64,000 nucleotides of DNA, taken from positions 1-64,000 of IMG/VR virus record IMGVR_UViG_3300027762_000003; one strand, 5' to 3'. The translations under genes were made by a program, and so were the position numbers. This stretch comes from a virus. Below, in pieces: positions 16,429 through 59,854 of the stretch. Under the pieces are notes generated by a model, which ran no database searches, was not told the origin of the DNA, and saw only the letters and a program-made list of their open reading frames with translations. Within the stretch, counting starts at the first letter, position 1. Each line of letters begins with the position of its first letter.

Positions 16429-16485
16429 ATGTTGACCTCTACTACAGGTTGACCACGCCCTCGGTTGCTGATAACAACGCGGGGG
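16429..16485 (-). promoter_or_regulatory. Conserved structured 5' leader (copy B)
   Basis: CCCCCGCG TTG TTATCAG CAA CCGAGGG CGTGGTCAACCT GTAGTAG AGG TCAAC AT ATG. Confidence 0.7.
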
Positions 16486-16566
16486 TACTTTAATGCTTAT
16501 ATCGTATCATAAAAAGCACGGTAAAAACCGCGCTTAACTATCAGTTATTCAGAGGTTTAATACGGT

Positions 16567-17370
16567 TTAATACGGGATATCTTCCTCCTCCATCGGCGGA
16601 TAACTCCCCTTACGCTTAGTGACCCACTCCACCCAAGCGGCTCCCTTTTTACCACTTTCAGAAGCGGGTAAGTTGTCAAAGCAATCTTGAATATAAGTGA
16701 TGTCCCATTCGGGCAACTCTCCCTGTGCCCATATTATTGCATCATCCGGATTCTTCCACTTTCTCCAAGGTTTAGACGGGTCATCGATCGCCGCCACATT
16801 CCCCACTACCGGCGCGGGGGTCTCTCTCGGTTGAACGTTGAGAACTTGAGAACCGGGGTATTGCTTGGCGATCGCCGAAGCCGCCGCACTAACCGCTCTT
16901 TGTTCCTGTTGCCTTGGCGATGTTTGTACAGGTCTTGCCGGGGGTCTACTTCCTCCCCCATTTCTTTCCCGTCCTTTTTTGTGGTATAAGTCGAGACCTA
17001 GCCCAAATTTTGCACAACAGCGCCGAAACGCCATAGCTTCTGCGTTAGAGGTCGGATCGCCAAAGGAGCGTTTCCGTTTCCCGTCAGACTTAAAAACATT
17101 ATGAGCGTCGTGCTCTTCTTGCCCGGTTGATTGCCTGGAAAGGGCAATATCTTCCCCTTGGATCGTAAGCTTACCGATCACGATGGTTCTATCATCGTGG
17201 TGTCTCACCTCTATTTCCCATTCCCAGAGATAATCGGCGCGCTCGTTAAGCAAATCTACTAGGTTATACCAGGAGATATAAGAGACCTCTGTCCCTTCCT
17301 CCCTTTTGATAGAGACAAGCTCTTGGGGTACGGGGGCGCGTAGTGCGGCTAGGATTTCAGAAATATTCAT
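16567..17370 (-). CDS. Rad52/22 (Sak-like) single-strand annealing protein
   Basis: SYISW, GDPTSNAEAMAFRRCCAKFGLGLDLY. Confidence 0.88.
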   Translation of the reverse strand: MNISEILAALRAPVPQELVSIKREEGTEVSYISWYNLVDLLNERADYLWEWEIEVRHHDDRTIVIGKLTIQGEDIALSRQSTGQEEHDAHNVFKSDGKRKRSFGDPTSNAEAMAFRRCCAKFGLGLDLYHKKGRERNGGGSRPPARPVQTSPRQQEQRAVSAAASAIAKQYPGSQVLNVQPRETPAPVVGNVAAIDDPSKPWRKWKNPDDAIIWAQGELPEWDITYIQDCFDNLPASESGKKGAAWVEWVTKRKGSYPPMEEEDIPY

Positions 17371-17594
17371 GCTTCACCTGTGTTTTATTTTGTGGTGTGC
17401 TAGTATCGATGAATCACGCTTCGTGTCGTGATTTTCTTTGTTTTGTCTATGCATGAAGGGGAGAGATGCTTGTCCGGCGCTCTCCCTTTCGTGTATGTAT
17501 CTACAATAGCGCGATATTTTACTATTGTAAATAGATGCGATAAACCACATTAGTGTTAAACTCAGCTATAATACGTTTACAATAGCGAGGCGCT

Positions 17595-17855
17595 ATGGTT
17601 AAAAAAGGCGAAAAACGAGAAGTAACCTGGACTCCGAACCCCGACGGTTGTCCTTTGTTTGGCAAGAAATATAAATTCGAGCCAAGGTATGGGAAAAGGA
17701 TGGGAAAGTCGATAACCCTGGCTATGCTCACTGAGGATTATATGCGCGTAAAGGATCGGGCTAAGGAAGAGAATCGCAGTGTACAGGATTTCATCCGTGC
17801 GGCGATCGTCTACGCGCTAGAACACCCAGAAACCATTAAGGAGGAGCGCCAGTAA
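17595..17855 (+). CDS. Ribbon-helix-helix (CopG/Arc-like) regulator
   Basis: [32 protein letters not shown]. Confidence 0.7.
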
Positions 17856-19839
17856 TGTAAATTTCGGTTATATTCCCTACCTTCCTCTGCTCAATGGGGC
17901 AACCGTTAACGCCCTGGACGAATGCGGCGACGTTAGGGTATGTGCCCCAATCCCAGACAGGGAATAATGCATTAGGATCTGTGAAGTTTGTGGCTAAGTT
18001 GTCATCTCCATCGTAGGCACCGAACCTGAAATAATAGTTGGTGGTAACGCTGGCATCGGGGTTAATGACATCAACCTGCCAGAAGTGTACATCTCGAACG
18101 TCAGCTTGGCTATAAACTACATGGCCCCTAAGTTCCTCACAAGGGTTAGGTTCTGGCGTAGGTGTTGGCGTAGGCGTTGGCGTAGGTGCTGGCGTAGGTG
18201 CTGGACTTGGAGATGGACTTGGAGATGGACTTGGAGATGGGGATGGTGCTGGACTTGGAGATGGGGATGGTGCTGGACTTGGTGCAGGAGTGGGCGCTGG
18301 ACTTGGTGCAGGAGTGGGCGCTGGACTTGGTGCAGGAGTGGGCGCTGGACTTGGAGATGGGGATGGTGGAGAAGGCGCTGGAGTAGGGTAAGGTGATGGT
18401 GCGGGGGTTGGGGTGGGTGGGTCTTTCTCTTCTTCTTCCTCCTCCTCCTCTTCTTCTTCCTCCCGTTTTTCGGGGCGAAACTCTAATGCCCAACTTCCCC
18501 ATGGACTCAAAAACTCTTCCTCTCCTTCTTTGTACCCTATTTTGTAGTGAATAAAATCAACGTACCCTTCTTTTTTTTCTTCTCCTGCAATAACTGTGGG
18601 TTCGGTATAAGTAGGGTATACAACATTTTTCTTGGTGACCGTTCCTACGTTATCAAGAAAACCGCCTCTCGAATACTCTAGCTGACTTTTAGGTTTAACC
18701 TTGGCTAAATAAGTGCCTGGTGGTAGTACAACAAAATTAGTAGACAAGGGAGACGGTGCGCCCGGATTACCTATTTGTGTGTCACACTTATATTGCCCAT
18801 CTTTGTAATATTCTCTATTTTTAGTAGAGTAATATTTTGAGTCTACCTGTTCAGACCACTTGCCCCCATTTATTAGCTTGCTGTCTGACATTAACGAGAA
18901 ACCCCTTTGTGTCTTTATCCTACCATCGACTCCCGTAGGAAGGCACTCGTATCTTAATGGAAATATAGCCTCAATTGATTTCGTGGATATGTCAGCTATA
19001 GGATTACATGCAGCCACTTCTAGTCCCCTAGGTAGAAGCCTAATTTTTATTTTTACACGAGTTCCTTTTGACTGATAAGAAAAACTGTCGCTACCCAGCA
19101 CATCATACAATCTTCTATATTTAAAAACTTTGAGATCCTCATCCCATTCCACTTTTGCTCCTTTACTGGACTCATGATCGTAGCTATCTACTTTAAATCC
19201 TTCTACTGCTTTTGTCTCTGCGTCTTTAAGGATTGAAGGCGTTATCTCTACGGTTCTAGAGTCAGTGTTATCTAAGATAGTCTCTTTTTCCAAAGTAGGG
19301 GAATCATCATCATTTACATATATTGTCGATCCGCCTTTTTCATTGTTTGGTGTTGTCGATGCAAGAAATGGCCATCCCACTTTTATTTCATTCCAGGGTG
19401 GTGGAGCCTCACCCGCATCATAATTCAAGCAGGACGTGCTAAACTTCCACATATGATCGTGATCTGGCCAAAATAGCATCTCGACCGTCTCGTCTTCTGG
19501 ATCAAGGGTAACCTTGTCTTCTTCTTCCTCATCCGATCGCCGCTTCTTCCGATCCTGCTCCAGATTCACCCGTGGTTTGTACGTTATTGACTTCGCATTT
19601 CCCTCCATTCGCGGCACAACTTTCTCGCCTTTCTTGATGCCACCAGAAGCGAGGTTATGGACTTCAGTTTCTCGACCGTTCACTTTGACGATCGCCTGTC
19701 CATTTTTATAGCCTACAAAATAGGTGTCCTTGCGCTCCTCATCCGCTTTCTCCCTTTCTGCCACTTCCTCTGTGTGCTTCTGGCGATTCTGTGCGGCTAG
19801 GCGTTGAATTAAGCGCTGCTCTTCTCTGGAGAAAGTCAT
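17836..19839 (-). CDS. Probable virion/tail-associated protein with Ig-like segment, poly-Glu and Pro/Ser/Thr linker
   Basis: Last gene of the tail operon; GSDSFSY Ig-like motif; poly-Glu run then about 90 aa of PAPSPS/PTP repeats. Confidence 0.55.
18154..18465 (-). repeat. Coding low-complexity tandem repeats (24-bp PSPAPTPA units, PS/PT dipeptides, poly-Glu)
   Basis: GCTGGACTTGGTGCAGGAGTGGGC x3 and GGACTTGGAGAT repeats. Confidence 0.9.
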
Positions 19840-19841
19840 TT

Positions 19842-20117
19842 TTAATAATATCTACGAGTCCTGTTTTTAGCGAGAATCATGATATCCGCACCTACCCTAG
19901 TCGCGACACCTTTACCGTAAGATGCGTTGGTCATCATCCTTGGGTTAGGGATCTCTTTTCCAGTTGCATCCGAGATGACCTTACGCCCTCGGATAGTAAC
20001 CGATTCATCCGCATTCCCCCCTTGCGCTGCCTTTGATTTCTCCTGAGTGCCACCGCCATTTCTAACGGAGTGAACATAGCGATTAAGCAGCGCCATCTCT
20101 TCTAAAGATAGACCCAT
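19842..20117 (-). CDS. Hypothetical protein of tail operon
   Basis: TAATG stop-start overlap at 20115-20119 fixes the start at MGLSLEE. Confidence 0.6.
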
Positions 20118-20779
20118 TAGACTATCCTCCCCCAAAGCTGATTTTGCCTGAATAAAGAAGTCGAGCCGGTCTGGATATTTGCAGCCGGTGAAAGGACTTG
20201 ATAAAGCTTGACAACCGCCTGGCAATATCGCACTCCTAAAGTACCCGCACCCCCATTGGTAATGTCAATGGTGTTGCCGGAAATATTATCTTTCAATGTG
20301 ATAGTGGTCGAGTTTGTAACCCCTACATAATAAAAAGCGTCCGCAGTCGTTCCACCCGGTGCTGTAGCTCCTGCTATTTCATGGATCATTACCCGGTCAT
20401 TTTCCGCAAAACCATGGGCAGCGCCAAAGGTGATCGTATTATTTGCGGGGGAAATTGTGGAAATAATAATCTCTGGAGTCGCGCTAACTGCTGTCGGTTG
20501 AGCCATTACAAAAGTCGAGATCACAGTAAAGTCATCCGCACCTGTAATGATGGCTTCTACAAGCGTTTCAGCCTGGAGAGTTAGCGATTTCCAAGATACT
20601 GCATTAGCGTTAAAATTAAGGAGCGGGCGCGTTCCTTGATCCGTGATTTCGTTGCTGTAATATTCTAAGTCAGTCGTGTCTATTGTCGGTGCGGCTAAAC
20701 TACAAAAGCCTAACCGCCATTGGTAGGCATTGATGTGTAGTTTAGCTAAGTCTAATATTCCTTGTTTAGTTGATGGCAT
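20117..20779 (-). CDS. Probable tail structural protein
   Basis: beta-rich; NTITFGAAHGFAENDRV...YYV...TITL motif typical of phage tail appendages. Confidence 0.6.
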   Translation of the reverse strand: MPSTKQGILDLAKLHINAYQWRLGFCSLAAPTIDTTDLEYYSNEITDQGTRPLLNFNANAVSWKSLTLQAETLVEAIITGADDFTVISTFVMAQPTAVSATPEIIISTISPANNTITFGAAHGFAENDRVMIHEIAGATAPGGTTADAFYYVGVTNSTTITLKDNISGNTIDITNGGAGTLGVRYCQAVVKLYQVLSPAANIQTGSTSLFRQNQLWGRIV

Positions 20780-20787
20780 AGTAATTC

Positions 20788-21144
20788 TTAAATAGCTAAG
20801 TGTTCAATCTCTAAATCATCTAATATTAGCTCTGGTGTAGCTAGTATATTGCAAGTCTCATCCCATAAAGATTTATTGATTAGTCCATGGTAAATATGAT
20901 CATAAATTTGAACACAGTATCCTCCTAGTGCTTGCCCTTGGTTGATGTATCTACCTCCATTTAAATCCATGACGCTAGTAAACTCTACAGTCCCTTTATC
21001 GTTAGGGTAGGGGGACGCACTACCAAATAACTCAAAAAAGAAGATCTGTAAATGTTGACTAGCCTGACCAATAAAGTCATGCGATCGCCTCCACCTATTA
21101 GCGCTTTCGTAGTCGTCAAAGATTAAATACTTCATATTCCCCAC
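20788..21144 (-). CDS. Hypothetical protein (possible fibre chaperone)
   Basis: Overlaps the end of the large tail gene. Confidence 0.5.
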   Translation of the reverse strand: MGNMKYLIFDDYESANRWRRSHDFIGQASQHLQIFFFELFGSASPYPNDKGTVEFTSVMDLNGGRYINQGQALGGYCVQIYDHIYHGLINKSLWDETCNILATPELILDDLEIEHLAI

Positions 21145-24100
21145 CTGGTCATCATTTCGTTCTCTATTTTAGCAATGTCAGTAGTTGAATAGGAATCGCT
21201 AAATACAGCTATTTCCGCTACATACATCTGAGCCATATATCCCTCATGGGATCTACCTATTAAAAAGTTAATCGTATCTCTGACGAAACTCGTTTTATAT
21301 GACTTATCCCAAACTACGGTTAAGCAGAAAAAGTTATTGATTGGAGCGCAGCTAAAGGGAGAGGATAGCCCACTACCATTTTTTCTGACTAATGCGGGGG
21401 ATGGGTTATTATTGAAATAAGTCTGCCCTGATTCAAATAGATAAGAGCGATAAGCTGGAGCGTTTTGGGCGGGGTAAGAAAAGACTTGTCCAAAGGTTGA
21501 CCAATTTGCCCCAACTGAGCGTAATACCGCACATATACCGTAAACATGGGGGGATGCTTTTGCGTGGTTGGACAGCCATGTTGATCCGTTAAAGTGGACT
21601 GTATCTCCTAAACGGGCATCTGAATAAATTAAAGGCTGATTAACTTTTGTTGTTTGTATCGCGTCCTCTCCAGACCCATTGTTAGCCCAAGCGGAAACAC
21701 TATTAATTCCTGAGCTGGTATCAATGGTCAATCCCATATCAGCTCTAAACCAATAGTAAAGATCAAAGGAGGCGATATCTGTGTAAGAATGAGTAGCTCC
21801 AATATTCCACCTTGCTATCATCTCATCTTCAATGTCCTCAATATCTGGCGCACTTAAAGCGGTATCATGAATTACAATTTCTGCGAGATAAAATCCTAAA
21901 TAGTAATTCTCGAAACTTCTATTAATTCTAAAGTTTTCAGCCCCTGAAATACGGTTATTTATATAAGTGGGATTGAATACCACGGTAATACAGAACCATT
22001 CATCTATTGGAGCGCAATTAAATGGTGATGAAACGCTTATTTTATTCCTCCTTACTAATGCGGGGGATGGGTTATTATTGAAATAAGTCTGCCCTGATTC
22101 AAATAGATAAGAGCGATAAGCTGGAGCGTTTTGGGCGGAGTAAGAGAAGACTTGTCCAAACAAAGGTACTTGGATAGTTCTCCACTGTGGTAGAGTGCTT
22201 CTAATGATCGCCGTGAAGCCATAATAAGCTTTAGTTACCCCACTATCTGTTAATCCCAAGAAAGTTGGGTTGTCGAAATACGCAGCGTTAATTTTGCCGA
22301 CTTTGAAATATTGGGGCTGATTTGATTTAGTGGTTTGAGTTAGTGACTCAGCAGATCCTTGGTTAGTCCAGGTAGAAATCCCCGCATAAGTCGTGTAGTC
22401 GATTGTGATACCTTCGTCAGTCCTGAACCAGAAGCGGGGGTTAAGAGCGGCGATCGCGCTCGTTCGATCCTCATATTCCAATGCCCCGCCATAGTTGAAT
22501 CCGCCGGTTAATTCATGAACGCTCGTTTGATCCTCATATTCTGACGTACCGCCATAATTAAACCCGCCGGTTAATTCATATATCTCACCAAGCACGTAAG
22601 CTAAATTTCCACCGTAGCCTACCCATGCCTCAGCATTGATGATGGTGGGAATGATTTGCTCCAATTTCCCCGTATACCCCCACAGATACTCAGTTTTCAC
22701 ATAGGGAATATAAGCTTCTGATAAGTCGCTACCGTGGAGATACTCCCCTTCAGACTCGACGATCTGATCGCCGTGGATTGTCATACCCCCATAGTTCCAT
22801 TCGTCTATTAAATTGAACTCCTCTGGTGTGTTCGGATCGAAGTTGAACCACTGCGCCGATCCGCCATGCCTCCACCCTCCCGTCAGGATAGGTACAGGTT
22901 GGGGGATGATTAATGGGGGCGGTGGAACCGGTGACGGACTCGGTACGGGTACAGGAGAGGGGACTGGAGTTGGTGCGGGGGTGGGGGCGATCGGATCTTT
23001 GGGGTCTGTGGGGATGATGGGGGGCGGGTTGAGCTGCGGGTAGTATTGCTGAGTGCGGATAAAGAAATTCGGGACGCTCTTATAAAGGATGAGATCCATG
23101 GACATCAAAGCGGTATCGTTTTCCAGAGTCCAGGAAATTCCCTCTGCGATATACATGAAGGTTCGATCAAGGCTCGTGAACTTGTTGCGTCCGTACTCCT
23201 GCACTTTAATGAAGCCCACTGGCTTGAAGTTCTGAACGATATCTTCTCGCAGTGGGATAACTAGTTCGTGAAGCCAAACACGCCCTTGATCGAGGGCGGC
23301 GATCGCATTACCGATTTCGGACAAGTTCGACTTGTCTTTGATGAACTCTAACCGGATGTCTTTTTGCTTGGGGCGATACTCTGCATAGGCTGGCGCTTGC
23401 ATCTCGACTTCGCATTCAATGTTCTCGGTTTCCTTACCAGAGCTTTCTTCCTGCATTGCGTCGCTCATGGTTTCCGGTTCGGGTGGTTGAGAGTCTCCCG
23501 AGTTAGAAAGAATGTACTCGGATTCTTCCATATCCACCCTTAAATTAAGGGCATCCTCCCTAGAAACCGCATCATCTCCTCTGGCTATCTTGCCATGAGA
23601 TTGCCAGACAACTTTATTCCACTGCCATTCATCTTTCCTAAATTCTTCCCAGGTCTGCTCTTCTTTGTAGGTAGGAACAAGATCTAGTATCCAATTGGCA
23701 TTATTAAACAACTCGTAGGCACTCTCAAAAGGCCAATAACCAAACTCCCTCTCAACGTCCCTTGGGGACATCTTGACACCTTCATTCTCCTTCTCGGATT
23801 CTGACTCTTCCTCCTCTTCTTTTTTGTCTTTCTCAATTACATACTTCTTCCCGTACCACATCTCGAATTTATAGTATTTTGACGTGATAGATCCTTTAGG
23901 TTCCTTAATTAATTTTGTATACTTATTAGTGACTCCGGTCTTTTCGTCAAAAAACCACTTTTCCTCAACTTCCCTGATCGGCACTGTCATTGTAGCGATA
24001 TCAACGTTAGCAAAATAGTTCCTGTAATATTCTACCTTCTCTCCAGTGTTTGACCTTTCAACTTCTTCCGGTATCTGATCCATTAAATCCTTTAGAATCT

Positions 24101-26131: not shown

Positions 26132-26137
26132 AGGGCA

Positions 26138-29863: not shown

Positions 29864-30517
29864 TTACTGAGCAAAAACTTCGTCTAAGATTTCAATCAGA
29901 TACTGGTTGATTTTCCCATACTTGGAGTCATGTGAATCGTGGATTGGGATACCCCGACTACGAGAAAGTGCGGCCGCTTTTCTTCCCAGTAGGTTAGCTT
30001 CTTTAGATGTGATTTGAATCCCCAAGATATTGGCATATCCCAAAATCGTGTAGTAGTGTCCATCGGGGTGAGAGATTCGGTCAAGCTCCGCATTGTGACG
30101 GGTGACGGTTTCCTCAACTTGAGCTAGTCGGCGTTCCTGCTCTCGATATGCTAGAGCCATCTCAACGAGCGCGTCACCGGTGGTTTTCTGGATGGCGTAA
30201 GAGCCGGTTTTACGAATAGATGGCAAGACTTCAGATGTCACCCACTTACGAAAAGGTTTTGCTTCAGGCTTACGTGAAGACAGCACCAGCGCATACATGC
30301 CGGACTCTGAAACTACTGCTGTGCTTGGGTTTCCCCGATTACCCTCATTTAGAATGATAGTATTCTTTTCTTCTTCATCAAGCCGGGTTAATGCCTGACT
30401 CGGATTGCTGATTTCCAAAACTTCGCACAAGTCCTTAGCAACAAACCAAGGCTCTCCATCTTGAGTGATGATGCGAACATCTTGACCTTTGAAGTCGAAA
30501 ACTGATAACTTATTCAT
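29864..30517 (-). CDS. BRO-N domain antirepressor-like protein
   Basis: VRIITQDGEPWFVAKDLCEVL...SESGMYALVLSSRKPEAKPFRKWVTSEVLPSIRKTGSY. Confidence 0.92.
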   Translation of the reverse strand: MNKLSVFDFKGQDVRIITQDGEPWFVAKDLCEVLEISNPSQALTRLDEEEKNTIILNEGNRGNPSTAVVSESGMYALVLSSRKPEAKPFRKWVTSEVLPSIRKTGSYAIQKTTGDALVEMALAYREQERRLAQVEETVTRHNAELDRISHPDGHYYTILGYANILGIQITSKEANLLGRKAAALSRSRGIPIHDSHDSKYGKINQYLIEILDEVFAQ

Positions 30518-30591
30518 GTTAGCCTCTAGTACAGGTTGACCAAACCCCCGGATGTTGATAGCATCGCGGGGGTTGTTATGTTTTTATTATA
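30518..30591 (-). promoter_or_regulatory. -10 box plus conserved structured leader (copy A)
   Basis: TATAAT...CCCCCGCG ATG CTATAA CAT CCGGGGG TTTGGTCAACCT GTACTAG AGG CTAAC ATG. Confidence 0.7.
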
Positions 30592-30620: not shown

Positions 30621-31215
30621 CTAAGCCGTGAGAAGGTCTTTTATTTTCCGTTTCTTGCGTACTTTTTTGATGTTCTCCTTGATGATTTTCTGGAGGCTCG
30701 GATCGCACCCAACCTTGGCAATAAGTTCAGACGAATTAACATCCCGATCGCTCTCATGTCCACAACAAGCGCAATGGTAGACGGGTTTGTTGATATCCAT
30801 TTCTGGATCATAGGACAGGCACTGAGAGCAGATCCGAGATAAAGGTAAATCCGACGCAGGTTTTAATCGCGTCATCTTTTTGCCAAACTCTTGAGTTTTC
30901 TTGTCGATTAAGTCGATTTGCTGACCGATCGCCGCGTCCAAATTACTCTTATTTTGACCCGCTAAAGCCGCTCCCGTCATCCTTGGCTTTGGCTTTGACT
31001 TTCCCTACCTTCTTCTGCAAGCCATCCTCAACTGCGATACCGGATGAATAGGTGGTCAGGTAAGAAGCGATGCGGTACTGGTGCGATCGCCGTCTGCGTT
31101 TCGTCTTCTCATGGATGCGTCTTATCCTCTGCTTACACTCCTTTACTCCTTGGGAATCACCGCAATGTTTCCACCGTAGGCGTTGAATAGTCCTGGGATA
31201 AGGGCTTCGAGGATT
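30621..31215 (-). pseudogene. tnpB: 5'-truncated, frameshifted TnpB (IS200/IS605 RNA-guided nuclease) remnant
   Basis: Frame 1: RIRRIHEKTKRRRRSHQYRIASYL...IAVEDGLQ...KAKAKDDGSGF. Frame 2: AGQNKSNLDAAIGQ...SRICSQC...CACCGHESDRDVN. RuvC-I region missing. Confidence 0.85.
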
Positions 31216-31223: not shown

Positions 31224-31548
31224 ATTGAGCAGGATCTAATACTCTCTTAGGGATTGAAACCGAACACCAAATCGCATTAATCACTGCCGAAATTCAGGAT
31301 TCAATGGATCTAATACTCTCTTAGGGATTGAAACGTAATCCTGATCAACCCAAGCTAAGGCATTAGCCAGATTCAATGGATCTAATACTCTCTTAGGGAT
31401 TGAAACAAGCTTGTGGGTAGCTCGCAGATCCCCATCAAGATGATTCAATGGATCTAATACTCTCTTAGGGATTGAAACTGTTGCGTGCTAAATTAGAATC
31501 ATCAATTGAGAGATTCAATAGATCTAATACTCTCTTAGAGATTGAAAC
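31224..31548 (+). CRISPR. CRISPR mini-array: five 37-bp repeats (GATTCAATGGATCTAATACTCTCTTAGGGATTGAAAC), four spacers of 37/35/35/33 nt; cyanobacterial I-D-like
   Basis: Repeats at 31224 (5' 8 nt diverged), 31298, 31370, 31442, 31512 (2 mismatches); 3' ATTGAAAC handle; terminator follows. Confidence 0.97.
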
Positions 31549-40995: not shown

Positions 40996-41159
40996 GTAAG
41001 CCTCCTATAGGTTCGGTCTATTGGGGGTCAGAAGTGATCGTTGGGTGGCCGCCCGGCGATCACTTCGTCTTTTGTGTCACATGATAGCACTATTCACTCG
41101 AAATAGATACACTGTCAACACAAATTAGATAGAATCGATTCAAGAGAAAGGAGACAAGT

Positions 41160-44434: not shown

Positions 44435-44498
44435 CCGATCACCTCCCTTTGTGTAAGTTACTCCTATCGTATCTGCTCAGGAAGGGGCACACCTATAT

Positions 44499-44906
44499 CA
44501 TGACTGTTGACTTTTTCGTCAACCCCAATAATGTTGATTTTTTCGTCAACGCCATAAGATCTTTTCTTTAAGGTTGTGGGTTAGCTATCAATATTTTTTT
44601 CAACCAAAGAGAGATGTAACTTATGTTGGAAGACCTGATTTTAAAATTAAGGGGTTTTTACGCGCGGCTGTTTCCTTCTTGTTTTAATGATCAAGATCTG
44701 TAATTCCTGTAGATCCCTTATGTATTTACATCTTAAAGATCTAAGGCAACTTGAAAAGCTTGATTTATAAGACTTTCAAGGATCGGAAACGACAAAGTGA
44801 TCGTTTAAACGACAAACCTGTCGTCGAGGAAACGACAAGAATGTCGCTTACTTATGCCCACTAAACGACAAGAATGTCGTTTCCTACCTGTTGAAAATAC
44901 TGAAAA
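44499..44906 (-). repeat. Origin-like element copy 2 (inverted relative to 13771-14182)
   Basis: Reverse complement matches copy 1 in long blocks, including the four palindromic boxes. Confidence 0.85.
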
Positions 44907-50603: not shown

Positions 50604-50609
50604 ATAGAA

Positions 50610-52283: not shown

Positions 52284-52320
52284 ACACTAATCCAATTTTG
52301 TTGACCCATCTATTTTAACC

Positions 52321-52995: not shown

Positions 52996-53045
52996 GGTAA
53001 AGGTGATCGTGGATTTGTTGTATAAATCGATTTGATTAACGACTT

Positions 53046-53072
53046 AAACGCTAGTCGAAACCAGCGTTTTTT
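53046..53072. terminator. Terminator after csf1
   Basis: AAACGCT...AGCGTTTTTT. Confidence 0.6.
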
Positions 53073-53075
53073 GTG

Positions 53076-54965
53076 TTAAAAATTAGTAGATCTCAATAAC
53101 TCCAGTTCCCTCTCGCGTTTCTTACCTTCAATTAACTGCTGACTAAAATACTCATACTCTTTTAAGTCGAGCTTGACATTGATTTTCGCTATCTGTTCAG
53201 TAGCGTATTGAATGCGCTTTTTGCAGATCAATTTTTCCACAGTTAACACCGCTTTCTCGATTGAAAGAATAGGCTTTTGAATATCCGATAAGTGTTTTTC
53301 CTGTAGGCATAATAATCTGTGGTACTGCTCACCAGCCTCTATGTATTCCAGTTCACTTTGCAGCCTAGAGATTAAATCGGTAGAGTCTATGGGCAGGCTT
53401 TCTTGTAATTCCTTGATCTGATTCCAGAGCGCTTGATGGTGGGGATACTGGAACGAGAGACGACGATCTCTCACAACCCGCAAGAAATAATCACGCGCTT
53501 CAGGTGCGTGGAGGTAGATTCGCAAAATCAGACTCTCGGCTTCAAGTAGTAACCGGTCTTCTGGGTTGGACTCGATTTTGATTTTCGGAATACTGGGATT
53601 ACTTCTAGATTGGGGAATGTGGCGTAAGCGCTGCACTTGCCTTGCCAAGTCTGCGGTAATCAATTTGAGGCGATCGCTGTTACCCCGGCTTAGATACTCA
53701 CTACAGACCCCAATATAATAATTCCGCATAGTAGGGTCATCGATTTTGCTTAAGACTTTTACCCAAGCTTGCGCTACCTCTTGGAATTCGTGAGCAGAAC
53801 CGAGATCCTTACCTTTCATGGTTTGCTCAATCTGCCAGTCAATCCAGAGGGAAGCTTTCTGCACCAGGTCTAAATAGGCTTGATTTCCTGAAGATTTCAG
53901 AAACTCATCAGCATCTTTACTTTGGGGGAGACTAAGAATGCGAAGTTGGATTTGCCCTTGATAGACTAGATCCGCAATCTCTGAAATAGCGCGCCCTGTG
54001 GCCGTGGTTCCTGCTTGGTCGGTATCAAAATTGAGGATGATTACCTTGGAGTACCGAGCCAACCTCTTGATTTGGGAGCTACTCAATGCAGTACCCAAAG
54101 ACGCGACAGACTCGGAAACGCCGGAGGCATGGAGGGCAATCGCATCGAAGTAACCCTCGACCACAATAGTCCGATCCTGCTTGACGATCGCCTTCTTGGC
54201 TTTGTCGAGTCCAAACAGCAGATTCCCCTTTTCAAAGATGGGGGTTTCTGGAGAATTCAGATACTTTGGCTTTGCATCCCCTAACGCTCTTCCCCCGAAG
54301 CCCACAACCCGCCCCTGGATATCGCAAATGGGAATCATTAGGCGATCGCGGAACCGGTCATAATAACCAGAGGATTTGCGCTTAATCACCAACCCCGCTT
54401 TCTCAACCACGCTTACCGGATATCCCTTGACCTCTACCAAGTGGCGATAGAGGTCTTGCCACTCATTTGGTGCATAGCCCAATCCGAATCCCTGGATCGT
54501 CTCCCTGGACAAACCTCGCTGTTCCTGTAGGTAAGTTAGCGCTTTTGTCGCGTTGGGTTGATGTAGGGCATGTTGGAAAAAGTTGGCGGCGATCGCCATA
54601 ACCTCAAACAACTGTTCATTCAGGGATAACTGTCGTTGAAACTCCTTACTGTCCTGATTATCCATTGTGCGGATGGGGACTTCGTAGCGTTTTGCCAGAT
54701 CTAAGGCTACTTCCCCAAACGAGCGACTATCCAACTGTTTCAGGAAGCTAATGGCATCCCCACCCGCGCCACAGCCGAAGCAGTGAAAAACCTGCTTAGT
54801 CGGGCTAACGGTAAAGCTTGGACTCCTTTCGTCATGGAACGGACACAACCCGGCAAACTCACGCCCCTGTTTCTTCAGTACCACCCGCTCCGAGATGATC
54901 TCGACAATATCAATCCGTTGCTTGATTTCTTCAATGGTGTCGGGGTGGAGTCTAGGGATATTCAT
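53076..54965 (-). CDS. dnaG: DNA primase (cyanobacterial type)
   Basis: MNIPRLHPDTIEEIKQ start, GLCPFHDERSPSF, CFGCG, YDRFRDRLMIPI, KYLNSPET, VVEGYFD, FDTDQAG, KDADE. Confidence 0.97.
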   Translation of the reverse strand: MNIPRLHPDTIEEIKQRIDIVEIISERVVLKKQGREFAGLCPFHDERSPSFTVSPTKQVFHCFGCGAGGDAISFLKQLDSRSFGEVALDLAKRYEVPIRTMDNQDSKEFQRQLSLNEQLFEVMAIAANFFQHALHQPNATKALTYLQEQRGLSRETIQGFGLGYAPNEWQDLYRHLVEVKGYPVSVVEKAGLVIKRKSSGYYDRFRDRLMIPICDIQGRVVGFGGRALGDAKPKYLNSPETPIFEKGNLLFGLDKAKKAIVKQDRTIVVEGYFDAIALHASGVSESVASLGTALSSSQIKRLARYSKVIILNFDTDQAGTTATGRAISEIADLVYQGQIQLRILSLPQSKDADEFLKSSGNQAYLDLVQKASLWIDWQIEQTMKGKDLGSAHEFQEVAQAWVKVLSKIDDPTMRNYYIGVCSEYLSRGNSDRLKLITADLARQVQRLRHIPQSRSNPSIPKIKIESNPEDRLLLEAESLILRIYLHAPEARDYFLRVVRDRRLSFQYPHHQALWNQIKELQESLPIDSTDLISRLQSELEYIEAGEQYHRLLCLQEKHLSDIQKPILSIEKAVLTVEKLICKKRIQYATEQIAKINVKLDLKEYEYFSQQLIEGKKRERELELLRSTNF

Positions 54966-54988
54966 GGGAAGTCCGGAGGGCGATCGGG

Positions 54989-55060
54989 TATAATATAGAA
55001 GTGCCCCCGCGATGTAATCAGCAACCGAGGGCGTGACCCATCTAGAACAAGTAGACAGGT
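54989..55060 (+). promoter_or_regulatory. -10 box plus conserved structured leader (copy C)
   Basis: TATAAT...CCCCCGCG ATG TAATCAG CAA CCGAGGG CGTGACCCATCT AGAACAAGT AGA CAGGT ATG. Confidence 0.7.
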
Positions 55061-55204
55061 ATGAATAAGTTAAGATATTTTGACGGAATCCGCTATGGGG
55101 AATACCGCGATCTTGAGGTATTGGTTGGTCGTCTTTGGGGAGGGCGATCGGTAAATGTCCATAATGCCTACTCATGCCCGCCTATGTCGGTTTGTGTCCA
55201 TTGA
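55061..55204 (+). pseudogene. 47-aa ORF (MNKLRYFDGIRYGEYRDLEVLV...), probable truncated antirepressor-like gene
   Basis: Sits behind the conserved leader; its start ATGAATAAGTTA is identical to the BRO gene start. Confidence 0.4.
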
Positions 55205-55262
55205 TATGTCCGTATGTATTTGGCGTGCGATAATGGACGCATTAATTTAGTTATTTAGCCTT

Positions 55263-55637
55263 ATGGCAAAAAAATCTAGGTTCACCAACACTCAGAAGAG
55301 AACTATCTTAGTTGAGTCTGTCGCTCTTGGTGATAGTGCTACGGCAAAAAAATATAATATAGACCCTAAGACACTGTTTCGATGGCGAAAAGAGATAGAT
55401 CAAGAGGAGTTAGATAGAGCCATAGAAGAGGCTGGCCCATTTTCGACAGAATTCAACGAAACCCTCAAACTCTCCACTCAATTCCTGAATGAACTCCTGA
55501 AGAAGGCGATCGTTAATATCCAGAACATGAATGACCAAGGGGAGTCCAGGGCGATCGCCGCCTACCATGGATTATTTAAGGCGTGTGCCGATCTTAATAT
55601 CCTGAAAGAGTTAGAACGAGACTCAGAGGATGATTAG
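55263..55637 (+). CDS. Probable terminase small subunit
   Basis: HTH (DSATAKKYNIDPKTLFRWRK), overlaps the terminase large subunit. Confidence 0.65.
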   Translation: MAKKSRFTNTQKRTILVESVALGDSATAKKYNIDPKTLFRWRKEIDQEELDRAIEEAGPFSTEFNETLKLSTQFLNELLKKAIVNIQNMNDQGESRAIAAYHGLFKACADLNILKELERDSEDD

Positions 55638-57120
55638 CATACAAGCCAGAATTAATGAAAAGCTTAATCGGAGGCGACAAAAACGCAGAGAAGGCAGGAG
55701 GTCACCACTAATTAAGCTTGAGCAAGCGATCTCCGACATCGATGGGCCAGTTGATTTCACACGCCAGATTCTTGGCATCAAGCTCTACCCCAAACAAGAA
55801 GAACTCTTAGCCGCGATCTGGCAACCTGGAGTTACCCACGTGGTGTTGTCACTCGGCAGACGTTCCGGTAAGACCACCATGGCGGCTATTTGTGCGGTTT
55901 ATGCTGCAATCTGCTTGGGCGATCGCTACCGTAAAGCGCTTGGTCTACGCTCCACGTTTAATATCCTCTGTATCGCCAACAAGGAGGCACAATCCAAAGT
56001 CGCGCTAGGGATGATTAGGGACTTAATTCAGAAAGCGCCCCTACTCAAACCCTTAATCAAGCGCCAAGCAATGGAAACCCTAGAACTAACCAACGGGGCA
56101 ATCTTTACGGCATCCCCCGCCTCATCTAGGGGTATCCGTGGGGAAGCATCACCCCTAATTATTTTCGATGAGTTGGCTCACTCCCTCGACACATCCGGAA
56201 ACGCAGCCGGTGACCAACTCTATCAAGCGGTGGCTCCTGGCGCTGCTCAGTTCGGGAAGTACGCCAAGATTCTTATGCTTTCTACCCCATGGATTCAAGG
56301 GGGAATTTTTTGGGACTTCTATAACCAAGGGCAATCCCCCGATTACCCGTCCACGTTCTCTATTTCCTTGCCAACATGGGAAGTTAACCCCCATCTACCC
56401 TATGATGGGGAATTCCTCAAAGAAGAGCGCGATCGCGACCCATGGTCATTTAACATCGAGTACGGCGCTAACTTTGCCTCACCCGTAGGCGCTTTTCTCT
56501 CGTCTGATGACGTGGAAGCGTGCATACTCAGAGAACATGCCAACCCCACCCCAACGAAGTCAGACCACTACTACACCCTTTCTCTTGACCCTGCTAAAGG
56601 TGGGCGGGATGAGTATGTAGCCTGCATCCTCCACTGGGAAAAGGATGAGTGCATAGTCGATCGCTGGTATGTATTTGAGCCATCCGTCCAGGATGGTAAG
56701 CGGAAACTCGTAAGCGTGGAAGAAGTAGAGAATTGGATTATCGAGAGCGATCGCCGCTACCGGTTCCACAAGATTATCCTCGACCAGTACAACAGTCAAA
56801 GCACTATACAGAGCCTAAAGAAGCGCGGGTTACCTTGCCGTGAACTTCATTGGTCAGCCAAGTCGGTGACGGAAGCCTACACCAAACTAAGAAACCTGGT
56901 CATCTCTGGCAACCTAAACCTGTACCGGCACAAGAAGGCGATCGAACAGTTGAAGGGATTAATTGTGAGGTACAACAGCGTAGGCACAATGTCTATTAGC
57001 GGCGGTGACGGTGCGGGGGTTGACGACTACTGCGCTGCTCTTGCCGGCGCTGTGTTGGTGAGTACGCCACCCAGACCGCCAGGGCGATCGGGTACGTTCT
57101 CGATGAGTATGTGGGGGTGA
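55630..57120 (+). CDS. terL: Terminase large subunit
   Basis: LYPKQ, GRRSGKT, IRG, IIFDELAH, LSTP, EYGANF, SLDPA, LDQY, DDYCAALA. Confidence 0.93.
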   Translation: MISIQARINEKLNRRRQKRREGRRSPLIKLEQAISDIDGPVDFTRQILGIKLYPKQEELLAAIWQPGVTHVVLSLGRRSGKTTMAAICAVYAAICLGDRYRKALGLRSTFNILCIANKEAQSKVALGMIRDLIQKAPLLKPLIKRQAMETLELTNGAIFTASPASSRGIRGEASPLIIFDELAHSLDTSGNAAGDQLYQAVAPGAAQFGKYAKILMLSTPWIQGGIFWDFYNQGQSPDYPSTFSISLPTWEVNPHLPYDGEFLKEERDRDPWSFNIEYGANFASPVGAFLSSDDVEACILREHANPTPTKSDHYYTLSLDPAKGGRDEYVACILHWEKDECIVDRWYVFEPSVQDGKRKLVSVEEVENWIIESDRRYRFHKIILDQYNSQSTIQSLKKRGLPCRELHWSAKSVTEAYTKLRNLVISGNLNLYRHKKAIEQLKGLIVRYNSVGTMSISGGDGAGVDDYCAALAGAVLVSTPPRPPGRSGTFSMSMWG

Positions 57121-57132
57121 CCCCACTACTGC

Positions 57133-57855
57133 CTAGCAGCAAAGGTAGGAGAGAAATTGCCCTCCGTTACCTTCCCAGATTGTCGATTTGGCTCCTTCTA
57201 GGACAAGGTATCGGACTGTCCGGATCATGGTTTCCCAGTCTTCTACCGGAAAGCTCATTAAAAGTCTTTCCTCTAACTTTAGCCGTCCTATAGAGTCCAC
57301 CTCTACAGCCCCAAAGGGGACGTGACGTTTCCCCAATGGTATGTCTTCCCCACCGGCAGTTGCCAGGATTACCTTGGCTCCAGACCTTAGCTCAGGGGCG
57401 ATCGCCTCGTAGTTGGCGTTTAGCCAGTGGGCGACATCCCCACTCATCAATCCATTGCTGGCAATTTCCGCCAGTAGGTCGGTAATCTCTAATCCATCCT
57501 TGGACTCTAACACCATGGACAACCGTCCATCGATTCGCGCGGTAGCGATCGCGTACCGGATACCGTAGGCAGCTTCACGGAGAGAGTCTCCACACCGGAA
57601 AAGCTTGTAGACCAAGTCGGTCACTCGCTCCATATCCGAATTTCGGACATCTACCAGGCTTAACCCGTAGCCTGCTAGGGCTTCTAGAGCCTGTGCCTTT
57701 AGCGCTGCTTTGGCGCTAAAGGATTTGAAGCTTACGAACCGCGCCCCAATCCCGGAGGCAACCACAAACCAGCAATTAGCCCATTTTTCTACCCGCTTGA
57801 TAGCAGTGACCTCTACAGATAGGATGTTAGCGAATTGAGAGAAGAAGTTAAACAT
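57133..57855 (-). CDS. Hypothetical protein
   Basis: GAGG SD, own family promoter (57895-57933). Confidence 0.65.
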   Translation of the reverse strand: MFNFFSQFANILSVEVTAIKRVEKWANCWFVVASGIGARFVSFKSFSAKAALKAQALEALAGYGLSLVDVRNSDMERVTDLVYKLFRCGDSLREAAYGIRYAIATARIDGRLSMVLESKDGLEITDLLAEIASNGLMSGDVAHWLNANYEAIAPELRSGAKVILATAGGEDIPLGKRHVPFGAVEVDSIGRLKLEERLLMSFPVEDWETMIRTVRYLVLEGAKSTIWEGNGGQFLSYLCC

Positions 57856-57948
57856 TGGGGAACCTCGTAGGATAAAGGGCTGTAGCCGTTTGGTTATATT
57901 TCTATAATAGTATAATGTTTCGCTATTGTCAAGCAGTTTACCAAAAGA

Positions 57949-57973
57949 AAAACCCGGTAGTTAACCGGGTTTT
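57949..57973. terminator. Repeated terminator family CCCGG-(N3)-GTTAAC-CGGG
   Basis: Related copies at 58675-58700, 58725-58745, 63432-63456, 63748-63764. Confidence 0.7.
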
Positions 57974-57990
57974 GATTTAGCGAATTAAGA

Positions 57991-58332
57991 TCAAAGCTTG
58001 TTCCATTCCTTGGGGAAGAACCCAGGATCTGCAATCATTGCTTGTCTATGTTCCTCGGCTTCTCTGCGTGCTTGTGGACTGTTCCAGTCAAATCCCTTCA
58101 TAAAAGGGTTTTCCTTAACTTTGTAAGCGCGACAAAGATAGTCGTCATTGGGCGCGTGTTTCCTCACGAATTCGGTGCAGTCTTCCAGCTTTTCAACATA
58201 GAAAAGCGCGTCTTTGATCCCTTTAGGGGTTTTGGGGAACTCGTGAGTCTTGCCCGTCCGATCTTTTACGAACACTCGTTCGCCGACAGTCTTGATACAT
58301 CCTTGTTTTACGTTGGGAGTTTTAGCAGCCAT
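57991..58332 (-). CDS. Hypothetical protein
   Basis: AGAGG SD, family promoter 58350-58394. Confidence 0.65.
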   Translation of the reverse strand: MAAKTPNVKQGCIKTVGERVFVKDRTGKTHEFPKTPKGIKDALFYVEKLEDCTEFVRKHAPNDDYLCRAYKVKENPFMKGFDWNSPQARREAEEHRQAMIADPGFFPKEWNKL

Positions 58333-58473
58333 GATTTAGTCCTCTTTGTTTTGTCTATATCTATACAATAAGGGAATGTTTCGCTATTGTCAAGCAGTTC
58401 AGTAAATCAGATCTAGCATTGACAATAGCCAGATATATGAGTATTATAGAGTTATAGATGAACGGAGAACACC

Positions 58474-58656
58474 ATGAACTACACAACCATTGAAGAAATC
58501 AAAACCCTGAGCAAGAAAGACGCTTTAGCGCTACGCAAGGACTATCTGAAAGAGATCCCCTTCTACGTTTCGATGGGCGGCGATCGTGATGAGACTGCTG
58601 TAGAGATGAGGTTGGTAGTTGGGCTTATAGATAGCCTCTACCCCAGGAAAAAATAA
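58474..58656 (+). CDS. Small hypothetical protein
   Basis: Family promoter at 58419, GGAG SD, terminator at 58675. Confidence 0.65.
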   Translation: MNYTTIEEIKTLSKKDALALRKDYLKEIPFYVSMGGDRDETAVEMRLVVGLIDSLYPRKK

Positions 58657-58783
58657 AGGGAAATAAAGAAAAGTAAATCGGGGTTAACCCCGATTTTTTT
58701 ATTGGTTATATTTAGGCAAAGAAAAACCCGGCGGTTAACCGGGTTGTAGTTCATGTCCCGTAGGCGGGGCTGATGGGATGGGG

Positions 58784-59065
58784 TTAACCGGGATATTCCC
58801 ACTCTTCAAATACATTTAGTGATTCTTCAATAAGCTTCATATCGCGAATGTCTCGGCATTTGCACCGATTAATGTTAATACCGGGTACACGATAGGCGGG
58901 GGGTTCACTCCCCTCGATCAAGGTCGAGGGAGGGATCAGCGAGGCGATCGCCTCTTGCTCAGAATCCGCTTCTATAAATAACCGGTGGGTTACGATCTCT
59001 TTTATCTCTATAATATATCTAGCCATGATTTTGTCCTCTTTGTTGTGTGTGTAGTATGTGGTCAT
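58784..59065 (-). CDS. Hypothetical protein (start may be MARYII at 59026)
   Basis: AGAGG SD before MARYII; YIIEIKE...IEADSEQEAI motif common in phage ORFs. Confidence 0.55.
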   Translation of the reverse strand: MTTYYTHNKEDKIMARYIIEIKEIVTHRLFIEADSEQEAIASLIPPSTLIEGSEPPAYRVPGININRCKCRDIRDMKLIEESLNVFEEWEYPG

Positions 59066-59140
59066 GCCCTCAAAGGAGAGGGCGGTGAAAATCAGTATAT
59101 GTGGTCATGCCCTCAAAGGAGAGGGCGGTGAAAATCAGTA
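59055..59140. repeat. Exact 43-bp tandem duplication containing a GCCCTC/GAGGGC hairpin
   Basis: TATGTGGTCATGCCCTCAAAGGAGAGGGCGGTGAAAATCAGTA x2. Confidence 0.95.
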
Positions 59141-59584
59141 GACGTAGTTTAGAGAATCGGCTTTCCAGCATCCGTGATCGCGATCGCCCCAGTAGATCTC
59201 CTCCTGCCCTCGCTGGTAGTCGTCATCATCCCGTTGTGCTTTCTTGTAGCCAGCCATGTACGCCTGGCTGGTTTCTTGGGGTTCCAAGCCGGTCAACCAA
59301 TCCTCGTACCCACGGCGGTGGGTACGGGCATAATCATCTGGGCGGTAGGCGAGTGCCACCTTGTAGCCCAGCTCATAAAACTTGAAAAAATATAAATTTT
59401 CTTTTTGGGTGTGCAGGGGGGAGAAGGGGCGGTAGGCGAGTGCGTCAGCCACAGCCTGACGCACAATGAGGGAACCGGGGCAGCGATCGTAGCGAGGCGA
59501 GAGGTGGTAACCGATGGTGGGGTCGGTGTAGATCGAAGAGTAGGTCGAGAGGTGAAGTGTGTTAGACTTGTCGTTAGAAGACAT
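59135..59584 (-). CDS. Hypothetical protein
   Basis: AGGT SD, family promoter 59651-59691; Y..GY repeats. Confidence 0.6.
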   Translation of the reverse strand: MSSNDKSNTLHLSTYSSIYTDPTIGYHLSPRYDRCPGSLIVRQAVADALAYRPFSPLHTQKENLYFFKFYELGYKVALAYRPDDYARTHRRGYEDWLTGLEPQETSQAYMAGYKKAQRDDDDYQRGQEEIYWGDRDHGCWKADSLNYVY

Positions 59585-59762
59585 GAGGTTTTACCTTTTG
59601 TTTGCGAGTGAGAGGGAAGCGAGACTTTGGTCGGTAGCGCTTCCCTTTCGTGTATATCTCTATAATAACTAAACATTTCGCTGTTGTCAAGTAGAAAAAT
59701 AAAATTCATTCAAGTAAGCCGCAATCCTTTTGTGGGAAGGCGTTGAGGGCGATCGGTTGTGC

Positions 59763-59854
59763 TATAATAATCAAAAGCCCAGAGCGCAGGATTGCGGGAA
59801 ACAATCCAGGCTCTATCACCGGGCTGGTCAACCTAGAACAAGTAGGCCAACTAC
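59763..59854 (+). promoter_or_regulatory. -10 box plus structured leader (copy D, expanded first stem)
   Basis: TATAAT...GCCC AGAGC..GGATTG..CAATCC..GCTCT..GGGC TGGTCAACCT AGAACAAGT AGG CCAAC TAC ATG. Confidence 0.65.

Follow-up and report, generated by a model that had tools for sequence, protein, structure and literature searches.

A portable cassette at the translation starts of unrelated phage and bacterial genes probably encodes a cis-antisense RNA

In IS10/Tn10, RNA-OUT and RNA-IN are transcribed from promoters that face each other, and RNA-OUT forms a stable antisense stem-loop over the ribosome site of a selfish gene. T4-type homing endonuclease genes (I-TevI and its relatives) are limited in expression by hairpins that sequester the ribosome-binding site (RBS) and by late promoters. 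In phage P22, translation of the antirepressor mRNA ant is limited by sar, an antisense RNA of 68/69 nt that pairs with its ribosome-binding region (PMC12197685, PMC5415839). Translation of the nuclease-like toxin SymE is blocked by SymR, whose gene lies opposite the 5′ end of symE and overlaps the RBS and the start codon (PMC4147584).

Here we describe a portable unit of 85-95 bp that heads unrelated genes in phages and bacteria. In our best reading, this cassette would act like sar/ant, SymR/symE and RNA-OUT but be portable between unrelated genes. As in sar/ant, two of its four targets in the window (the 64,000-nt stretch of viral DNA that was analysed) are of the antirepressor type, Bro-N and KilA-N. 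However, sar is part of a single immI locus in P22-like phages, whereas the cassette stands before many unrelated genes in several phyla, and the two have no sequence or model similarity (Rfam, either strand). As in SymR/symE, the predicted antisense promoter falls just within the target ORF, and nucleases and small hydrophobic ORFs are among the targets. Unlike in type I toxin-antitoxin systems, the targets are mostly not classical toxins and one conserved RNA scaffold would serve many target families. One member (L092) heads a DDE transposase gene, which recalls IS10, but RNA-OUT is a single long hairpin specific to that element, whereas the predicted cassette RNA has two hairpins, with a conserved tandem G.U and a bulged G in the 3′ hairpin, and is not bound to one element. 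With the T4-type homing endonuclease genes the cassette shares the arrangement in which selfish nuclease genes carry their own compact, expression-limiting device at the ribosome site. In the T4 type, however, the controlling fold is on the mRNA itself, and every member of the cassette family folds less stably on the sense strand.

Four copies in a cyanophage

The window is part of a complete cyanophage of 80,027 bp, which has exactly four copies of the cassette, at 16.4, 30.5, 55.0 and 59.8 kb. On the strand of the downstream genes they occupy 16485..16426 (-) for copy A, 30572..30515 (-) for B, 55004..55063 (+) for C and 59777..59857 (+) for D. Copy A shares 83% identity with B across 58 nt and 92% with C across 37 nt. 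The covariance model, whose scores are given below in bits, finds the four with E-values of 3e-18 to about 1e-4 and nothing further anywhere in the 80,027 bp. The predicted features are as follows.

16419 to 16495, plus strand: copy A, predicted antisense RNA gene (72.8 bits; fold, -22.2 kcal/mol). TG-extended -10 TGgTATCAT (hexamer 16419-16424); 5′ hairpin 16431-16453 (GUUGACCU / AGGUUGAC); linker CACG; GC-rich 3′ hairpin with a bulged G, 16458-16485; mixed A/U tail
15895 to 16428, minus strand: gene behind copy A, 177 aa; matches phrog_32599, a PHROG of unknown function. Its SD (GAGG) and the spacer up to AUG are covered by the predicted antisense RNA; sense -10-like TATAAG at 16501..16496
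30503 to 30590, plus strand: copy B, predicted antisense RNA gene (65.7 bits). -10 TGaTAACTT (hexamer 30506-30511); 5′ hairpin 30518-30540; 3′ hairpin 30545-30572; U-rich tail UUGUUAUGUUUUU
29864 to 30517, minus strand: gene behind copy B, Bro-N antirepressor-type, 217 aa (Bro-N, 9e-28; anti-repressor Ant PHROGs); sense -10 TATAAT at 30591..30586
54994 to 55072, minus strand: copy C, predicted antisense RNA gene (61 bits). -10 TAACTT, 55072..55067; 5′ hairpin 55060..55036 (ACCUGUCUA / UAGAUGGGU); 3′ hairpin 55031..55004
55061 to 55204, plus strand: ORF behind copy C, 47 codons; sense -10 TATAAT at 54989-54994
59769 to 59864, minus strand: copy D, predicted antisense RNA gene (21.9-24.4 bits). 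-10 TAAAAT, 59864..59859; 5′ hairpin 59851..59827 (GUUGGCCUA / UAGGUUGAC); expanded, three-part 3′ hairpin 59824..59777; tail CUUUUGA
59855 to 60574, plus strand: gene behind copy D, KilA-N domain protein, 239 aa (KilA-N, 5.7e-17); sense -10 TATAAT, a promoter-like plus-strand site, at 59763-59768
40996 to 41066, minus strand: "looser variant" before an HTH gene, not a member (6.2 bits, E=6); a different long hairpin

The four copies sit where a preliminary description of this DNA had placed them, their similarity is far above chance, and the expanded first stem that it noticed in the KilA-N copy is borne out by the fold analysis. The looser variant, which it had added as a fifth case, is excluded from the family by its score, and no antisense -10 adjoining the start codon was seen there by inspection. 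The proteins behind the copies are unrelated to each other, as had been proposed. The label "P63C-like" for the gene behind copy A is without Pfam support, phrog_32599 being its sole match. The orphan ORF behind copy C resembles the Bro-N gene of copy B in its first 8 residues only, and is possibly a remnant. As a description of the whole target set, "antirepressor-type" fits Bro-N and KilA-N and is too narrow for the genes behind the relatives.

Strand of the conserved fold

About 50 distinct relatives were collected from IMG/VR contigs, Streptomyces, cyanobacteria, one Myxococcales MAG and one Pirellulaceae MAG. Members were first gathered by patterns that fixed both boxes, the direct repeats of the sense strand, so that only about 20 later covariance-model matches escape this bias. 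More than 20 nt upstream of the hairpin, as well as past position +16 of the gene, pairwise identity drops to background (26-27%). The two boxes stand 6 to 16 nt apart, depending on the member, and the loops of hairpin 1 are not conserved except for a 3′ AA. Covariation of the stems, claimed in the preliminary description, is stronger than could be seen there: among 42 members, both sides vary in 17 of 20 pairs, with 100 double-change cells, a level reached by none of 500 shuffles.

The functional RNA could be the mRNA leader, in which a 5′ hairpin and then a small hairpin (ACCU/AGGU) burying the SD would control translation in cis, perhaps with a protein or ligand. Both hairpins can form, weakly, on the sense strand, hairpin 2 covaries at its fifth pair (high-GC members have G-C, cyanobacterial ones A-U), and all four window copies have a sense -10 located 9-13 nt upstream of hairpin 1. 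However, the reverse complement folds better in each of the 50 distinct members, where it averages -29.9 kcal/mol against -25.0 kcal/mol for the sense strand, and the two-hairpin architecture recurs in all of them. Taken alone, hairpin 1 is more stable on the antisense strand in 42 of 48 cases, and the antisense 5′ hairpin, which is the sense second helix, in 42 of 42. On the sense strand this second helix is weak and has a conserved tandem C.A/A.C mismatch in its middle, and C.A mismatches also recur in hairpin 1; pairs 48-73 and 49-72 of the sense alignment are unpaired in 16 and 23 of 24 sequences, respectively. The antisense strand turns the tandem into U.G/G.U, which gives a stable helix: the sense "direct repeat", GGUCAAC twice, is the 8-9 bp antisense helix GUUGACCU/AGGUUGAC with its tandem G.U. 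Divergent copies (copy C of the window, L090, L085 and L086) retain this 5′ helix and the tandem G.U with different letters, and in copy C the tandem is kept despite a change at six positions of the canonical 8-bp helix. In a MAFFT alignment that was made without fitting to structure, 94.8% of cells are paired on the antisense strand against 82.6% on the sense strand (31-46% in slid controls), and 104 G.U cells stand against 6 A.C; many of these G.U cells are non-independent, since the conserved tandem G.U is one inherited sequence feature.

A leader also leaves the GGUCAAC repeat and the positioned antisense TANNNT in the coding sequence (see below) unexplained, and a sense -10 within 40 nt is present in 31 of the 50 members but missing in 19. 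We regard the mRNA leader as an unlikely functional form. Of the earlier proposal, we retain RNA-level control by an element that is conserved and covaries and that sits where translation starts; its two-hairpin fold on the mRNA strand is not supported, as that strand is not the one on which the fold is best supported. The second stem said to bury the SD forms weakly on the sense strand (mean -5.0 kcal/mol) and is better supported as the antisense helix (-8.6 kcal/mol). Because the conserved fold fits the opposite strand, the cassette most likely encodes a small antisense RNA. A role of the sense leader may exist in addition, since the mRNA strand also forms both hairpins weakly.

The predicted antisense RNA and its alternatives

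In 47 of 50 members the antisense strand has a TANNNT hexamer that precedes CAT by 0-4 nt; at other 7-nt offsets, 1-2 of 50 have one. It falls in codons 2-5 of the downstream genes, independently of frame or protein. Its distance to the 5′ helix of the MFE structure is 6-8 nt in 38 of 47, and when the helix start is instead set manually at the conserved GTYGRCC, nearly all distances take these values. The hexamer has a TG extension in 23% of members, where chance would give about 6%. This positioned -10 box indicates a separate small antisense RNA gene. Past the 3′ hairpin, the next 10 nt of the antisense strand are 48% U. A simple consensus scanner, applied to the four window copies, called neither a two-hexamer sigma-70 antisense promoter nor, at the 3′ hairpin, a classical terminator with 5 or more U in 8, and thus the promoter would be of a -10-only type and the terminator atypical. 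Together, the cassette presents, as judged from sequence, a predicted opposite-strand promoter whose transcript would cover the SD and start region, and a stable antisense structure with covariation and G.U pairs.

Each copy is probably a cis-encoded antisense RNA gene of roughly 60-80 nt, lying over the 5′ UTR of its target. Its -10-only, sometimes TG-extended promoter would be placed inside target codons 2-5 on the opposite strand, and transcription would start at, or a base or two from, the first G of GUUGACCU. The RNA would begin with a hairpin of 8-10 bp, in which the complement of the SD (AGG) and spacer is predicted to pair with an upstream mimic through a stem that always has the tandem U.G/G.U. 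After a linker of 3-4 nt, a GC-rich hairpin that has a single bulged G and is followed by a U-enriched tail would end or stabilise the transcript just before the target's own -10 box. The antisense RNA may then pair with the mRNA leader, probably loop to loop first, masking the SD up to the AUG and lowering translation of genes that are harmful when over-made, such as antirepressors, homing nucleases, a transposase and small hydrophobic proteins. The design would be asymmetric, because G.U pairs that fold the antisense RNA well become C.A mismatches in the mRNA, so that the ribosome site would be open when the antisense RNA is absent.

Coordinated control of the four phage genes, as suggested in the preliminary description, is possible, since non-cognate antisense/mRNA duplexes among the four copies are predicted at -45 to -89 kcal/mol. 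A wider reading, which we consider doubtful, is that the cassette is a single ancient, horizontally travelling antisense brake attachable to any dangerous gene, whose copies cross-pair as an RNA network. Such pairing in trans between copies in one genome would be expected as the stems are conserved and only the loops differ. If this were true, antirepressors, homing nucleases and transposases would have their expression set jointly by the network, both in phages and in more than half of the sampled Streptomyces genomes.

The cassette may instead terminate or feed transcription that leaves a selfish gene, as an insulator or outward promoter, with a short RNA that leaves the gene behind it unregulated. 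Read in the antisense direction, copies C and D do run into divergent genes, namely the DnaG primase gene (likely start 54965, minus strand) and a minus-strand ORF near 59.6-59.7 kb. However, the upstream neighbour is co-oriented with the target in A, B and most relatives, and the 5′ hairpin always complements the target's SD region, 0-3 nt from the start codon. An insulator needs neither this complementarity nor this position, and such a function seems improbable to us. A DNA-level element, either a single-stranded hairpin pair or a protein-binding or recombination site marking insertion points of a mobile cassette, is the least probable: G.T against A.C asymmetry would also fit one folded DNA strand and the cassette has clearly moved among unrelated genes and hosts, but the variable box spacing means that the boxes are not helically phased, the arms are unlike integron attC or IS200/IS605 ends (outside the hairpin the boxes form direct repeats in place of inverted R/L boxes), and TANNNT 6-8 nt from the helix start points to transcription.

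Other readings of the boxes were tried and dropped. As an antisense -35, TTGACC has a suitable -10 only in copy B, and none is visible in GC-rich members. A LexA box at GTAC is a half-site only, and copy B is the one copy that has it. That the boxes pair with the 3′ region of 16S rRNA was dropped because their complement lies inside helix 45. A pseudoknot joining the hairpin 1 loop to the spacer was discarded given the unconserved loops, autoregulation by the downstream proteins given that these are unrelated, and a phage-specific DNA-binding regulator given different box variants within one phage (G007 and G019).

Distribution, targets and significance

The cassette occurs in at least four phyla (Actinomycetota, Cyanobacteriota, Myxococcota and Planctomycetota) and in their phages. 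Among Streptomyces, 35 of 61 sampled genomes have it, with up to a dozen copies per genome. The window gave no match at gathering score in Rfam 15, which should include sar, SymR, RNA-OUT, C4 and riboswitches, and 12 member loci (from phages, Streptomyces, cyanobacteria and a Pirellulaceae genome) gave no relevant match at E ≤ 1 on either strand, in agreement with the earlier statement that no named family could be assigned. No match to plasmids or cultured phages was found by megablast with 20-24 kb of the window, nor to cultured phages by short-query blastn with two elements; short-query blastn against plasmids gave three actinobacterial matches, all unannotated. Literature searches by sequence (TGGTCAACCT and variants) returned unrelated primers only, and word searches found no description of the cassette.

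Most targets are nucleases or regulators of 130-440 aa. The gene types behind the relatives comprise HNH, endonuclease VII, GIY-YIG and T5orf172 nucleases, the DDE transposase, and small hydrophobic ORFs, the last behind some Streptomyces and cyanobacterial copies.

Should the antisense RNA prove real, it would form a large uncatalogued sRNA family across four phyla and their phages, and antisense control of selfish or toxic genes would also be portable, beyond the locus-by-locus invention represented by sar, SymR and RNA-OUT. It would offer a testable handle on how antirepressors are kept silent in temperate cyanophages and on how phages tolerate free-standing homing endonucleases, and could serve synthetic biology as a compact, host-independent repression cassette. 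In annotation, the cassette marks true start codons. For example, it precedes an annotated HNH gene on a Rhodococcus plasmid, and this gene probably starts 75 nt upstream of its annotated start.

Cassette copies in the phage and the genes behind them

Four cassettes, units of 85-95 bp that head unrelated genes, lie in the window where the preliminary description had placed them, and the complete phage record (80,027 bp, with direct terminal repeats) contains exactly these four. On the sense strand, that of the gene behind, each copy runs from a TATAAT-like box through 9-13 nt to a GC-rich hairpin with one bulged C (hairpin 1), then 1-2 nt, a first box TGGTCAACCT, 7-9 nt, a second box AGG-YYAAC, 0-3 nt and ATG. 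Copy C has TGACCCATCT as its first box and AGACAGGT as its second. Identity is 83% over 58 nt between copies A and B, and 92% over 37 nt between A and C. A "looser variant" formerly placed at 40996-41066 is a non-member by the covariance model (6.2 bits, E = 6).

Cassettes of the window: position; gene behind; antisense -10 element
Copy A; 16.4 kb; 177-aa protein, phrog_32599, without Pfam match; TGgTATCAT
Copy B; 30.5 kb; Bro-N antirepressor-type protein; TGaTAACTT
Copy C; 55.0 kb; 47-codon ORF, its likeness to the copy B gene restricted to the first 8 residues; TAACTT
Copy D; 59.8 kb; KilA-N protein; TAAAAT

The assignment of the copy A gene lends no support to its earlier label, "P63C-like". 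Copy B directly follows a 119-aa ORF (30621-30980) whose sole match is the C-terminal TNB domain of Cas12f1/TnpB, and about 250 bp from this ORF is a CRISPR-like mini-array (31224-31548) of five 37-nt repeats spaced by about 72 nt. Near copy C, the DnaG primase ORF is listed from 55175, and its probable start is the ATG at 54965. Within the long ORF, the first residue of the Zn-ribbon domain is 78; cassette C fills the stretch between. The predicted antisense promoter of copy C is directed into the primase gene.

Exact patterns, run twice over IMG/VR and once over species-representative genomes, recovered relatives; covariance models R1 and R2 were used to sort true relatives from chance or coding matches, and whole-record model searches added divergent copies with differing boxes. 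The first members came from patterns fixing both boxes, so that only model-derived matches are unbiased. The genes behind the relatives share a theme wider than antirepressors: they are accessory, selfish or potentially harmful.

Gene types behind cassette relatives: type; loci
Endonuclease VII; L009, L029, L042
HNH; L017, L031, L043, L062, L157
HNH with NUMOD4 or AP2; L085, L086
GIY-YIG; L161
T5orf172; L010, L048, L051
Bro-N and KilA-N; L055 (two copies)
Rha; L088
DUF932; L049
DUF6415; L142
DDE transposase; L092
Small ORFs with hydrophobic N-terminus, or 14-codon ORFs; several loci in Streptomyces and cyanobacteria

In one further relative (L213), on Rhodococcus rhodochrous plasmid NZ_CP027560.1, RefSeq places the start of an HNH endonuclease gene at position 2420 of the locus. 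Another ATG in the same frame lies 75 nt upstream, at 2495, directly after the AGG-N-ATG of the cassette, which itself has no annotation in the record.

Strand of the fold and covariation

The cassette had been read as a two-hairpin leader of the mRNA. Control at the RNA level at the ribosome site is retained from that interpretation; the fold is most likely that of the other strand, and the cassette is probably an antisense RNA gene. The whole element is stabler as antisense in 50 of 50 members (mean -29.9 vs -25.0 kcal/mol for sense), and the antisense MFE structure is the identical clean two-hairpin fold in each of them. Among 48 distinct sequences of hairpin 1 alone (the 3' hairpin on the antisense strand), 42 are stabler as the reverse complement, and helix 2 alone (the 5' hairpin) averages -8.6 kcal/mol as antisense against -5.0 as sense, with antisense better in 42/42. 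The antisense fold gains because U.G and G.U pairs take the places of C.A mismatches on the sense strand. For example, one fixed position of the sense outer stem is frequently a C.A mismatch (GCC-C-CCG ... CGG-A-GGC), where the antisense strand has U.G. Similarly, the sense direct repeat U-GGUCAAC-CU ... A-GGUCAAC-AUG becomes 5'-GUUGACCU-loop-AGGUUGAC-3', a continuous 8-bp helix with tandem U.G/G.U at its centre; on the mRNA strand, these four bases open into a 2x2 CA/CA internal loop. Copy C, which had appeared degenerate, is a perfect 9-bp antisense helix (ACCUGUCUA/UAGAUGGGU) that keeps the tandem G.U. The tandem G.U is also kept in AUGUCCU/AGGAUGU of locus L090 and, with the helix and different letters, in the two loci with NUMOD4- or AP2-type HNH genes.

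Covariation was measured in A5, a MAFFT alignment of 42 antisense sequences built without structure fitting. Standard pairs make up 94.8% of its 805 cells; 17 of 20 pairs have changes on both sides, with 100 double-change cells, and 0 of 500 shuffles matched any of five measures. Pairing falls to 31-46% when partners are slid, and to 82.6% when the cells are read on the sense strand. There are 104 G.U cells vs 6 A.C cells; the G.U counts overstate independent events because the tandem G.U is inherited. Helix 2 of the sense alignment lacks its two central pairs in 16/24 and 23/24 sequences, respectively. Both hairpins are still possible, weakly, in the sense leader, which may contribute beside the proposed antisense RNA.

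Proposed antisense promoter and mode of action

In 47 of 50 members, the antisense strand has a TANNNT hexamer 0-4 nt ahead of CAT, which complements the start codon; other 7-nt windows across the next 45 nt contain one in 1-2 of 50. Since it spans different frames and unrelated proteins, the hexamer is a nucleotide signal. Its only fixed positions are 1, 2 and 6, which are likewise the fixed ones in sigma-70-type -10 elements, and 23% of members carry a TG extension. The hexamer lies 6-8 nt from the MFE-defined 5' helix in 38/47, and mainly 0-4 nt from CAT. Spacing outliers are mostly folds with the helix extended into CAT, and hand re-anchoring on the conserved GTYGRCC start brings nearly all members to 6-8 nt. 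This constant spacing suggests that the hexamer is placed for a start at the hairpin base and is not bound to the codon. A sense -10 lies within 5-16 nt of hairpin 1 in just 31/50 members and is absent from most Streptomyces chromosomal copies. For the window copies, a simple scanner (two hexamers; at least 5 U in 8) called neither antisense promoter nor terminator.

Past +16 of the ORF, and farther than 20 nt upstream of the hairpin, pairwise identity averages no more than the compositional background of 26-27%. Of the 10 nt preceding hairpin 1 on the sense strand, 48% are A, which gives the antisense strand a U-rich stretch behind this hairpin. Thus, the conserved unit comprises an antisense -10, the 5' hairpin, a linker, the 3' hairpin and a U-enriched tail, the layout of a small RNA gene.

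Such a gene would be transcribed face to face with its target at the target's start. The antisense RNA would cover the Shine-Dalgarno sequence and spacer as far as the AUG and block 30S binding; cleavage of the duplex, or an effect on the sense promoter by interference, may add to this. First contact would be made by the variable hairpin loops, which are complementary to the mRNA's own loops. In the phage, cognate duplexes are predicted at -124 to -170 kcal/mol vs -45 to -89 for non-cognate ones, and, as the latter still form in prediction, cross-regulation among the four genes is conceivable.

The RNA-OUT of IS10 has a mode of action like that proposed here. The same holds for P22 sar on ant (PMC12197685, PMC5415839) and SymR on symE (PMC4147584). 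Unlike these, the cassette is a conserved scaffold portable across unrelated genes and phyla, and it is distinct as well from the RBS hairpins of T4-type homing endonuclease genes, which are on the sense strand. In the Rfam check foreseen in the preliminary description, Rfam 15 gave no match to any existing family on either strand, even at E <= 1, which places the cassette outside the sar, SymR and RNA-OUT families.

Family range and other repeats

The analysis covered about 50 distinct members, on contigs with 41-69% G+C. Several Streptomyces species are among the named hosts, as are a Rhodococcus plasmid, a Pirellulaceae MAG, a Myxococcales MAG and the cyanobacteria Nostoc, Calothrix, Microcoleus and Goleter. 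With the antisense model (E <= 1e-5), 35 of 61 sampled Streptomyces genomes have at least one match, with up to 11-12 per genome; the same model finds matches in just 2/61 sampled genomes of one cyanobacterial order. A divergent subfamily of the two-hairpin RNA in Streptomyces genome G021 (L202, L205, L207) precedes 14-codon ORFs with the common pattern M-x-x-G/A-T/A-A-R-...-E-G-A-T, and in a second subgroup (L204, L208-L210) the 5' hairpin is of another kind and an obvious ORF is absent. L060, a viral contig with two cassette copies, also has a group I intron match at 1312-1696 (E 3e-9; 47.6 bits, just under the Rfam gathering score of 50).

The window holds other repeats. Inverted copies of about 410 bp at 13771-14188 and 44498-44906, 30.7 kb apart and 91-98% complementary in blocks, each contain several AAACGACA-N4-TGTCGTTT sites and are candidates for origin-like or transposon-end-like elements. 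Another family of regulatory repeats, about 50-57 nt long (families D3, D5, D19, I2-I13), occurs at 4862, 10407, 17483, 28708, 45660, 46067, 57889, 58350, 59647 and 63803. On one strand it reads TTGACAAT-AGC...-TATTATAG, a -35 and -10 flanking a small inverted repeat, and probably represents an operator-promoter set of the phage itself. Three terminator-like AAAAACCCGG-N4-AACCGGGTT hairpins (family D12) lie at 57937-57971, 58711-58745 and 63732-63766.
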